Virus record (IMG/VR): IMGVR_UViG_2706794668_000007
From: a virus
Lineage: Duplodnaviria > Heunggongvirae > Uroviricota > Caudoviricetes
Length of the DNA stretch: 4,719 nt
Reading direction: 5' to 3' (one strand)
Shown here one piece after another: positions 2,646 through 4,536 of the stretch; the first letter of the stretch is position 1; each line of letters opens with the position of its first letter. The position numbers were made by a program, and so were the translations under genes. A model generated the notes under the pieces. The model was given only the letters and a program-made list of their open reading frames with translations. It did not search any database and had not been told where the DNA came from.

Positions 2646-2673
2646 AAATAAAAAAGCCTTCACTGCGGAAGGC
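2646..2673 (-). terminator. Rho-independent terminator overlapping the 3' end of the 65-aa ORF
   Basis: Minus-strand RNA reads GCCUUC-CGCAGU-GAAGGC (6-bp stem) followed by UUUUUUAUUU (plus-strand 2646-2655). Confidence 0.6.
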
Positions 2674-2857: not shown

Positions 2858-2977
2858 GTCTTTTCCTTTTCCGGTTAACGTGACACACCAATAACTCTTG
2901 TCGAAAAAGCCAGCAAGCTGAAAGACAGGTATTCACCGCCACCAGCGCGTTTACTGTACTGACGCGATTTCAGTCAT

Positions 2978-3001
2978 AAAAAACCCGCTCGGCGGCGGGT
3001 T
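2978..3001 (-). terminator. Rho-independent terminator about 40-60 nt downstream of the pR' start (tR'-like)
   Basis: Minus-strand RNA reads AACCCGC-CGCCGA-GCGGGUU followed by a U-run (plus-strand A-run 2978-2983). Its position shortly after the late promoter matches the short terminated pR' transcript of lambdoid phages. Confidence 0.6.
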
Positions 3002-3036
3002 GTAGAAACTCTTCTAACGTCAGGCATAAAACGCCC

Positions 3037-3076
3037 ATCGTTATGACGAATTTACCACAGATTCCGGAAAAATCAA
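3037..3076 (-). promoter_or_regulatory. Late promoter pR' with lambda-type pause element (qut region)
   Basis: On the minus strand: -35 TTGATT (3076-3071), 16-bp spacer, extended -10 TGgTAAATT (3057-3049), then 6 nt and AACGAT (3042-3037). The run GGTAAATT-N6-AACGATGGG is nearly identical in sequence and spacing to the lambda pR' -10 and sigma70-dependent pause element as I recall it. It lies immediately downstream of the Q stop codon. Confidence 0.6.
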
Positions 3077-3081
3077 CCTTG

Positions 3082-3703
3082 TTACCTAGTTACCTTTTTT
3101 AACTGCCGCTCAGCCCATGCTTCTTCAATATCAAACCGGGTCACCAGCGCATCATAAAATTTCTTAACTGTTTTTTCCCATGACGCGCGTGTTATCTGGT
3201 TTGTCACCTCGCATATAGCATTAAATGCCTCCGTTGATGGTAGTCTTTCATAGCCACGACCACCACAACGCTGGCAGTCTCTGATAACAGGCATACCACG
3301 TTTTACCGACTCTTCACGATGAATGGCGACACCACGCCCACGGCAATCCTTACAGGCGGTGGAAACCTCACCCTTTCCGCCACACTCCGGACAGGCAACT
3401 TTTACCACCTCCCTGACTTTTTTCCATTCTTCCCAGTAAGACGGATACACACCTTTCGTACACTTTGCCCATACCGGCGGCTTACCATCCGGATACTGGA
3501 CCTTGTTTGTAAAAACTACGCTTTCAATAAATTTTTCCCCATAGCAACAAGGGCACTGCTTTTTACTCGCTGCGCTGCGGGCATAATCCTCAAAAGCGTA
3601 CGAAGCCATAATGCGCATCACTACCGGTTTTATTTCTGCCGGAAGTTTTCTCAACGCCGCCACACGATCGCACCGACTGAGTGCATAATCTGCCAGTAAT
3701 TCT
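3082..3703 (-). CDS. Q: Late antiterminator Q (lambda Q family), C-terminal 206 aa visible; N-terminus in N-mask
   Basis: The C-terminal region aligns with lambda Q as I recall it: AFEDYARSAA, CKDCRGRGV...DCQRCGGRGYERLP (Cys4 zinc-binding module), and ...FYDALV...KKVTR ending. An extra Cys-rich segment (CPCCYG ... CPECGGKG) is present upstream of the conserved finger. Stop TAA at 3084-3082; last codon is AGG. The N-terminal 19 aa of the track ORF (3954-4011) overlap rusA and are a read-through artefact. Confidence 0.85.
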
Positions 3704-3953
3704 NNNNNNNNNNNNNNNNNNNNNNNNNNNNNNNNNNNNNNNNNNNNNNNNNNNNNNNNNNNNNNNNNNNNNNNNNNNNNNNNNNNNNNNNNNNNNNNNN
3801 NNNNNNNNNNNNNNNNNNNNNNNNNNNNNNNNNNNNNNNNNNNNNNNNNNNNNNNNNNNNNNNNNNNNNNNNNNNNNNNNNNNNNNNNNNNNNNNNNNNN
3901 NNNNNNNNNNNNNNNNNNNNNNNNNNNNNNNNNNNNNNNNNNNNNNNNNNNNN

Positions 3954-4279
3954 AGACGTCCACCAGATACTGGCTGACCACGAACGATATTGATTTCATC
4001 AAACTGCTCATCGTCCATTAACACTCCCGCATGTGTCAGTGCATCCAGTGGTGCTTTCAGGATATTGTCCAGGTCACGACGGCGCTTATCCGGTGGCTCT
4101 GCAATAATCTTTATCGCCAGTCTTCCGGACAGGCTTAATTTCAGTCGCTGCTGACGGACAATAAGCGCCACATCCCGGCGATAACGCTCACCGGCTTTTG
4201 ATACAAAATATGTGTTGTCACGACGTCGCCAGTAAGTATTCACCGTCGGCGGATAAGGTAAAATAAACTCATGGCGCAT
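3954..4279 (-). CDS. rusA: RusA-family Holliday-junction resolvase, N-terminal 108 aa visible; about 12 C-terminal codons masked
   Basis: PPTVNTYW...DKRRRDLDNILKAPLDALTHAGVLMDDEQFDEINIVRGQPVSGGR matches E. coli RusA (PPSNNRYY...[30 protein letters not shown]...VTKGGR) as I recall it, including the catalytic acidic cluster. ATG at 4279-4277 overlaps the upstream stop by one nucleotide (TGATG). The 229-aa track ORF is rusA plus read-through across N. Confidence 0.8.
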
Positions 4280-4536
4280 CAGCGCAGCACCTCCTGCACC
4301 AGTTTTTCAAACTTTCCGACTCTGGTTTCCAGCTCTGCCACACAGTCCACCAGCTCATCTACTGCTTTCTGTGCGCGATGCTTCGCCTGCATCAGTTCCC
4401 GAAGCGCGGGTACCATATCTTTACGGATAGCGTCTTTTGTTATGCCCGTTTTTTCGAGTTGTTCAGCATGACGCAGCATTTCCTGCGCGTGTTTACGCAA
4501 TTGTTCAGGGGTAAAAGTCATTGTCTGGTTGTTCAA
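4279..4536 (-). CDS. Hypothetical nin-region protein, 80-85 aa, charged, predicted helical/coiled-coil; start ambiguous (TTG at 4536 or ATG at 4521)
   Basis: Open frame ends one nucleotide into the rusA start, which suggests translational coupling. GGAG lies 8 nt upstream of the TTG at 4536. The first ATG (4521) has no obvious Shine-Dalgarno. No family recognised. Confidence 0.55.
   Translation of the reverse strand: MNNQTMTFTPEQLRKHAQEMLRHAEQLEKTGITKDAIRKDMVPALRELMQAKHRAQKAVDELVDCVAELETRVGKFEKLVQEVLR

Follow-up and report, generated by a model that had tools for sequence, protein, structure and literature searches.

The stretch of DNA analysed here (4,719 nucleotides (nt) of a Caudoviricetes virus, IMG/VR record IMGVR_UViG_2706794668_000007; hereafter the window) carries on its minus strand the gene of a Q antiterminator, partly hidden by masked bases. 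By sequence comparison, the gene product belongs to the phi80/QuuQ type of lambda-family Q, which is already known and very common, and the 68-residue Cys-rich segment that sets it apart from lambda Q is the normal form of the family and not an unusual addition, lambda's shorter Q being the exception. The host context is a lambdoid prophage of Escherichia coli. We consider it probable (roughly 0.75) that this phi80/QuuQ-type prophage Q acts in a lambda-like manner and carries, in addition, a separate hairpin stapled by a second Zn(Cys)4 site. The structural work on the family has all used lambda Q, which is without the module that most of its relatives carry, including phi80 Q and QuuQ of E. 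coli K-12, and this module occupies a mechanistically sensitive position, at the hinge and along the edge by which the protein docks on RNA polymerase.

The Q gene and its Cys-rich segment

The visible Q open reading frame (ORF) ends with a TAA stop codon (3082-3084, minus strand), and its 5′ end falls in a run of masked bases (N) at 3704-3953. Base 3703, at which the first-pass annotation had set the boundary, is one base out of frame with Q, the in-frame end being 3702. A 309-residue ORF (3082-4011) was rejected as an artefact, because its reading frame passes through the masked run. The visible 206 residues matched Pfam family PF03589 (Antitermination protein Q) with an E value of 6e-37 and 126.1 bits, and a full-length proxy of the protein scored 182.9 bits, the cutoff being 26.7 in both cases. 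The same 206 residues are contained exactly in WP_000762866.1, a 273-residue RefSeq "antitermination protein" from strain FDAARGOS_944, and the annotation of the genome is left unchanged by our analysis, this being a routine lambdoid-prophage "antitermination protein" identical to the RefSeq protein. The masked N-terminus, the recovery of which had been called for in the first-pass annotation, was obtained by homology from this entry and begins MKLEDLPKYYSPKSP... On the same basis, the full gene is predicted to be about 822 nt long and to start near 3903 within the masked run; as the 250 N of the window correspond to 245 nt in the homologue, this position could be off by a few bases. The N-terminal nozzle segment (lambda Q residues 1-44), masked in the window, is conserved in WP_000762866.1 and in P0002, a homologue 98% identical to the query (BLASTP). 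Residues 1-113 of WP_000762866.1, which align with lambda Q, include a conserved G39; substitution of this residue in lambda Q abolishes antitermination (PMC9388147).

A phmmer search against the PDB sequences gave lambda Q (7ubm_Q, 207 residues) as the best match, aligned in two blocks: residues 1-113 of the full-length Q corresponded to lambda residues 1-113, and residues 182-273 to lambda residues 116-207. Between the blocks, 68 residues (114-181), which have no counterpart in the 207-residue lambda Q, stand in place of 2 lambda residues. This net insertion of 66 residues agrees well with the additional Cys-rich segment of "about 65 aa" that had been proposed from the window alone, and the lambda Q match, together with the PF03589 score, bears out the assignment to the lambda-family Q antiterminators. 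Lambda Q (PDB 4MO1, 7UBJ-7UBN; PF03589) shares the helix-turn-helix body and the Cys4 arm with its 22-residue spacing, and also the N-terminal nozzle segment as recovered from the homologue; its gene has the same position, with the same -10 (TAAATT) and pause element AACGATGGG downstream, and the two proteins are about 40% identical outside the insert. The spacing from knuckle 3 to knuckle 4 (four CxxC knuckles are numbered in Table 1) is 22 residues, as from C118/C121 to C144/C147 in lambda Q, and the CKDC...CQRC finger, regarded as the conserved one in the first-pass annotation, is indeed the counterpart of the lambda Q zinc ribbon formed by these four Cys residues.

An alignment of 107 full-length homologues (54-92% identity) revealed that C117, C120, C171, C174, C184, C187, C210 and C213 are invariant. 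The Cys of "CTKG", which had been counted into the Cys-rich pattern, is replaced by V or A in two homologues (P0010 and P0011) and is missing from the invariant list; since it is not conserved, it lies outside the pattern. At least four CxxC motifs were found in only 116 of 100,000 residue shuffles of the protein (0.12%), so few that the four-CxxC pattern is not attributable to chance. When the insert was searched alone against Pfam, no family scored above threshold; the YnfU model gave a weak, non-significant match (E 0.07) to the second knuckle, which is probably just the common CxxC motif. Conservation within the insert falls on the strand segments adjacent to the knuckles (GFIEAxVFTxK and V.E..rvlC), the tip of the hairpin being variable, and the hairpin is mildly basic (mean net charge about +2), comparable to the loop of the lambda-type arm. 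Across the family, the loop between knuckles 1 and 2 varies widely in length (10-59 residues), while the distances from knuckle 2 to 3 and from 3 to 4 hardly change.

Predicted fold and proposed zinc pairing

AlphaFold2, run on P0002 with the 107-sequence alignment, gave a model with a mean predicted local distance difference test (pLDDT) of 82 and a predicted template modelling score of 0.64. Foldseek comparison of this model with the PDB returned significant matches only to lambda Q structures (among them the loading complexes 7ubn_Q, E 4.4e-13 and a target-normalised template modelling score of 0.68, and 7ubm_Q, E 3e-10). The predicted fold consists of a helical body and a zinc-ribbon arm as in the solved lambda Q, and the strand-helix-strand between knuckles 3 and 4 of the lambda-type arm is kept. 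For the insert, the model contains two 12-residue strands (125-136 and 159-170) with short helices at the tip (block pLDDT 79-86); the first strand starts 5 residues past C120 and the second stops immediately ahead of C171. The same strand pattern came out when the arms were modelled alone, from the sequence of the window itself (3226-3582). Of the second zinc ribbon for which the first-pass annotation had suggested structure prediction, the part that stood is a predicted long beta-hairpin bounded by two CxxC knuckles; the pairing around zinc is our inference.

In this arrangement, the insert would be an additional, independent zinc module, in which C117/C120 and C171/C174 form a Zn(Cys)4 site, and zinc would be bound at two tandem sites with the knuckles paired 1+2 and 3+4. 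In the solved structures of lambda Q, one Zn2+ is seen. This pairing is favoured because the predicted strands adjoin knuckles 1 and 2, the 1-2 loop varies while the other spacings are fixed, and a clean natural deletion of the module is found (see below). An alternative is that the four CxxCxGxG motifs make up one DnaJ-like Cys-rich domain with nested zinc sites, in which knuckle 1 would pair with 4 and knuckle 2 with 3 (as in Anti-TRAP) and the lambda-type arm would be remodelled. The CxxCxGxG zinc knuckle is common to this Q, the DnaJ Cys-rich domain (PF00684; PDB 1EXK) and Anti-TRAP (PDB 2BX9), with weak, sub-threshold matches to both in sequence and structure, and hhalign pairs motif 1 with motif 4 and motif 2 with motif 3. 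The resemblance of CXXCXGXG in Q-like proteins to DnaJ was also the subject of a passing remark in an Acinetobacter phage annotation paper. However, the motif spacing differs from that of DnaJ and Anti-TRAP, and the window's Q has no J domain. No profile match above the PF00684 gathering score was obtained at DnaJ spacing, and the comparison with Anti-TRAP (PF15777/NF058604) gave 12.3 bits (cutoff 32) and 21 bits (cutoff 65). Since the single ribbon of lambda Q gives a weak DnaJ match of the same kind, the resemblance is due to a shared motif, not to membership. With the alignment, the model strands and the clean deletion all pointing indirectly to the 1+2 and 3+4 pairing, the nested arrangement appears unlikely.

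The body of lambda Q comprises residues 61-113 and 153-207; its arm, the zinc ribbon (residues 114-152), makes a swing of about 75 degrees and so reaches positions 11-13 of the 13-bp Q-binding element, and residues 110-112, 117 and 122-126 contact the zinc-binding domain of the RNA polymerase beta′ subunit (PMC9388147). The point of insertion, which corresponds to lambda residues 113-116, is exactly at the body/arm hinge and amid the residues of the polymerase-docking patch. Because the neighbouring lambda residues contact the beta′ zinc-binding domain, we speculate that the module might serve as a hinge brace, or as an auxiliary contact near that domain or upstream DNA. No description of the structure or role of the extra module was found in the literature searched, which covers the structural papers on lambda Q.

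Distribution and history of the module

A megablast search detected the visible Q DNA in 2487 of 5426 complete E. coli genomes, in which it was always annotated "antitermination protein" (1168 records at 99% identity or more); a lambda-type Q gene occurs in 1361 of the 5426, about half as many. In phage genomes searched with tblastn, full-length matches of 238-277 residues were obtained in phi80, ES18, SE1, Stx2c-converting phages, mEp021 and PHB10, as well as in Klebsiella and Erwinia phages, while lambda, P22, HK620 and HK544 carry the 207-residue form. The module was also found in prophages of Salmonella, Klebsiella, Erwinia and Pantoea. A HMMER search of 1.84 billion representatives clustered at 50% identity retrieved only 235 relatives; about 29 of the 34 aligned full-length representatives had an insert of 28-77 residues with two extra Cys pairs and 3 were lambda-like, proportions that may be biased by the search having been seeded with a long form. 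In distant representatives, knuckle 3 is often CxC and knuckle 1 occasionally Cx4C, the two Cys always being retained.

Phi80 Q (gp17, AFV29194.1, 269 residues) has the same four-knuckle architecture and insert length as the window's Q, and the inserts are similar (VFTNKV.YP.GKPP.W.K; CDCCDGGGFTEAQVFTNKVSYPWGKPPYWSK...VRVKCKPCNGKG), although the two proteins are only 41% identical overall and knuckle 3 of phi80 Q is CxC (CRC) instead of CxxC. QuuQ/YdfT from the Qin cryptic prophage of E. coli K-12 (250 residues) is 44% identical and has the four Cys pairs in the same order, but its first two knuckles are joined by a hairpin shorter by about 20 residues. Guo and Roberts (J Bacteriol 2004) reportedly carried out experiments on phi80 Q together with lambda Q. 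Since the module is present in phi80 Q, QuuQ and most representatives, it is a standard part of a known Q subfamily and not, as the first-pass annotation had it, an unusual addition. It was also noticed that the K-12 Qin prophage encodes a small "putative zinc-binding protein YnfU" near quuQ (L065 4806-4976). Three variants of the present Q were seen as well: P0004 (16 member sequences), in which a frameshift destroys knuckle 1; P0008, with a frameshift in the hairpin; and P0001 (337 residues), with a partial internal repeat. These may be pseudogenes or assembly errors.

A neighbour-joining tree built on the alignment columns outside the insert placed the short forms in three separate positions among the long forms (lambda together with P0220; P0178; and P0164). 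P0164 (200 residues, short) and P0132 (269 residues, long) are 82% identical outside the insert, and comparison of the sequences by hand revealed that P0164 is without exactly the part from knuckle 1 through the linker that follows knuckle 2, its knuckle 3 (CRCNGTGK) being intact; the BLASTP alignment of this pair was ambiguous across the insert and aligned the region differently from the manual reading. Because the short forms are scattered among the long ones and the excision in P0164 is clean, lambda Q looks like a deletion derivative, and the simplest reading of these sequences would be that a separable module has been lost repeatedly. As to the opposite direction, the module may have been gained by recombination. 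A further proposal, which we regard as doubtful though conceivable, is that the two-zinc form is both ancestral to the Q-lambda family and predominant in it, that lambda Q is a stripped-down version, and that the hairpin alters the loading of most relatives onto RNA polymerase. If this were true, the hairpin could touch RNA polymerase or upstream DNA as an additional contact, or set the angle of the arm in advance, and most natural Q-lambda-family proteins would load by a mechanism that departs from the solved lambda complexes, perhaps in its geometry or its NusA dependence.

That the extra Cys residues bind no zinc and the segment is a dispensable decoration, or that the window's copy is a decaying cryptic-prophage gene, is in our view very improbable. 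The existence of short forms means that the module can be lost, and the variable hairpin tip and the frameshifts that destroy knuckle 1 or fall in the hairpin (P0004 and P0008) would be compatible with such an interpretation; however, the eight Cys residues are invariant in the 107 homologues and kept in the distant representatives, the visible frame is unbroken and its product matches a widespread protein at 100% identity, and an intact promoter/pause/terminator cassette lies downstream. Scarcely credible is a reading along the lines of the first-pass annotation in which an internal duplication or insertion arose recently, in this prophage alone, and created a new Q specificity: the segment is not in lambda Q and the promoter spacer for the Q-binding element is unlike lambda's, but the module occurs in phi80 Q, in K-12 QuuQ, in prophages of the four genera named above and in most representatives, a RefSeq entry has the identical protein sequence, the long forms do not make up a single young clade in the tree, and the evidence for duplication consists of short motifs, a comparison of the insert profile with that of the lambda-type arm (hhalign) having given matches of 14-15 columns only (probability 23% and 7%), by which an internal duplication is not demonstrated.

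Late promoter cassette and gene neighbourhood

Alignment with lambda PR′ revealed a PR′-like late promoter just downstream of the Q stop codon, followed by a sigma-dependent pause element and an intrinsic terminator (Table 1). The pause element AACGATGGG, the role of which has been described (PMC9388147), is identical to that of lambda, whereas the spacer carrying the putative Q-binding element differs from lambda's in sequence and in length (16 nt versus 17 nt). The change of qut or RNA polymerase specificity that the first-pass annotation thought the module could bring about is conjectural. A promoter consensus scan did not call the late promoter (8 of 12 bases matching, threshold 9). By analogy with lambda, transcription would start at 3042, and the promoter would give a short transcript of about 66 nt ended at the terminator, analogous to the terminated PR′ transcript of lambda, which is longer; the predicted 66-nt RNA folds with a 3′ hairpin (-21.4 kcal/mol overall).

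A one-genome-per-species scan yielded 60 related loci, 56 of which, having near-full-length matches, were examined. The same promoter/pause/terminator layout was present in about 40 of the 56, and most have a hairpin followed by a T-run at the corresponding position. Many loci from several genera, with Q proteins only 50-60% identical, conserve the spacer consensus TTTCC(C/G)GAATCTGTG 3′ of Q, and a second clade of loci has A(A/C)GTGGCGGAA in the spacer. The phi80 cassette has the same layout (-35, Q site, -10, AACG(A/C)TGGG, terminator), and its GenBank record annotates TCGCGGA, one base after the -35, as the "protein_bind gp17 (Q)" site; the window has the heptamer TTCCGGA at the same offset, matching 5 of the 7 bases. 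By eye, the spacer might also be read as bipartite, (G/T)GAA...TGG, with a spacing shorter than in lambda. In loci outside E. coli (L005-L034), an inverted repeat (AAATAGCTCAC...GTGAGCTATTT) is conserved some 10-45 nt upstream of the -35 and overlaps the -35 region TTTACT; neither the window nor the E. coli and E. albertii loci have it, the Q stop codon there lying within a few bases of the -35.

Because of the homology, the mechanism of this Q is expected to be like that of lambda Q. The helix-turn-helix body and the zinc-ribbon arm would bind the Q-binding element between the -35 and the -10 immediately downstream of the gene, and Q would load onto RNA polymerase paused at AACGATGGG. The conserved N-terminal segment would form a "nozzle" at the RNA exit channel, with the result that the polymerase would read through the terminator (2976-3001) into the downstream genes. 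In our preferred reading, C184/C187 and C210/C213 would retain the lambda-type zinc site, and the 68-residue segment would form a separate beta-hairpin at the body/arm hinge, its base stapled by a zinc site of C117/C120 and C171/C174.

Table 1. Features located in the window (coordinates in nt; residues numbered on the full-length Q)
Feature	Coordinates	Strand	Basis or remark
Q antiterminator gene, visible part	3082-3702	minus	206 C-terminal codons and stop; ORF/translation, PF03589, WP_000762866.1
Extra module	3361-3564	minus	residues 114-181: knuckle 1, predicted long beta-hairpin, knuckle 2, 7-residue linker; not in lambda Q
Knuckle 1, CPCCYGEK (C117, C120)	3532-3555	minus	family consensus CxCCxGxGF
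Knuckle 2, CPECGGKG (C171, C174)	3370-3393	minus	invariant Cys
Lambda-type zinc-ribbon arm	3244-3360	minus	residues 182-220; ungapped match to lambda Q 116-154
Knuckle 3, CKDCRGRG (C184, C187)	3331-3354	minus	aligns with lambda C118, C121
Knuckle 4, CQRCGGRG (C210, C213)	3253-3276	minus	aligns with lambda C144, C147
PR′-like late promoter	3049-3076	minus	alignment with lambda PR′ and conservation
-35, TTGATT	3071-3076	minus	lambda PR′ alignment
16-nt spacer TTTCCGGAATCTGTGG, putative Q-binding element	3055-3070	minus	lambda PR′ alignment
-10, TAAATT	3049-3054	minus	same -10 as lambda PR′
Sigma-dependent pause element AACGATGGG	3034-3042	minus	identical to lambda's; six bases after the -10
Intrinsic terminator, tR′ analogue	2976-3001	minus	terminator scan; 7-pair stem with 5 G-C pairs, then TTTTTT
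85-residue coiled-coil-like ORF	4279-4536	minus	precedes RusA
RusA Holliday-junction resolvase gene	3904-4279	minus	PF05866; directly upstream of Q
65-residue ORF	2660-2857	minus	weak sub-threshold TrmB-like winged-helix match; between Q terminator and tRNA
Second terminator-like hairpin	2656-2673		overlaps the end of the 65-residue ORF
DNA methylase fragment	~1790-2330	minus	PF01555, E 2e-16; between Q terminator and tRNA
tRNA-Arg, anticodon TCT	1388-1464	minus	downstream of Q
STnc100 small RNA	1122-1311	minus	Rfam RF02076, full-length match, 133.6 bits (gathering score 47); just downstream of the tRNA
111-residue IraM-like ORF	761-1096	plus	position where related prophages have the anti-adapter protein IraM

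The gene context fits the late-control region of a lambdoid prophage. In FDAARGOS_944, RusA is also found upstream of Q and overlaps the Q start by 4 nt, but the masked RusA-Q junction of the window appears to be 5 bases longer than in that strain. A 409-residue ORF (1455-2684) was discarded, its length being inflated by read-through of N runs. At the position of the tRNA, related loci have tRNA-Ile, alone or together with tRNA-Arg, and the masked run at 1513-1750 may hide another tRNA. The 111-residue ORF at the IraM position had no match in Pfam. For PasD1 and PasD2, a 2026 preprint (10.64898/2026.05.13.724894), which relates them to the small RNA STnc100, reports a PF03589 Q gene within 10 kb in more than 98% of the hits.
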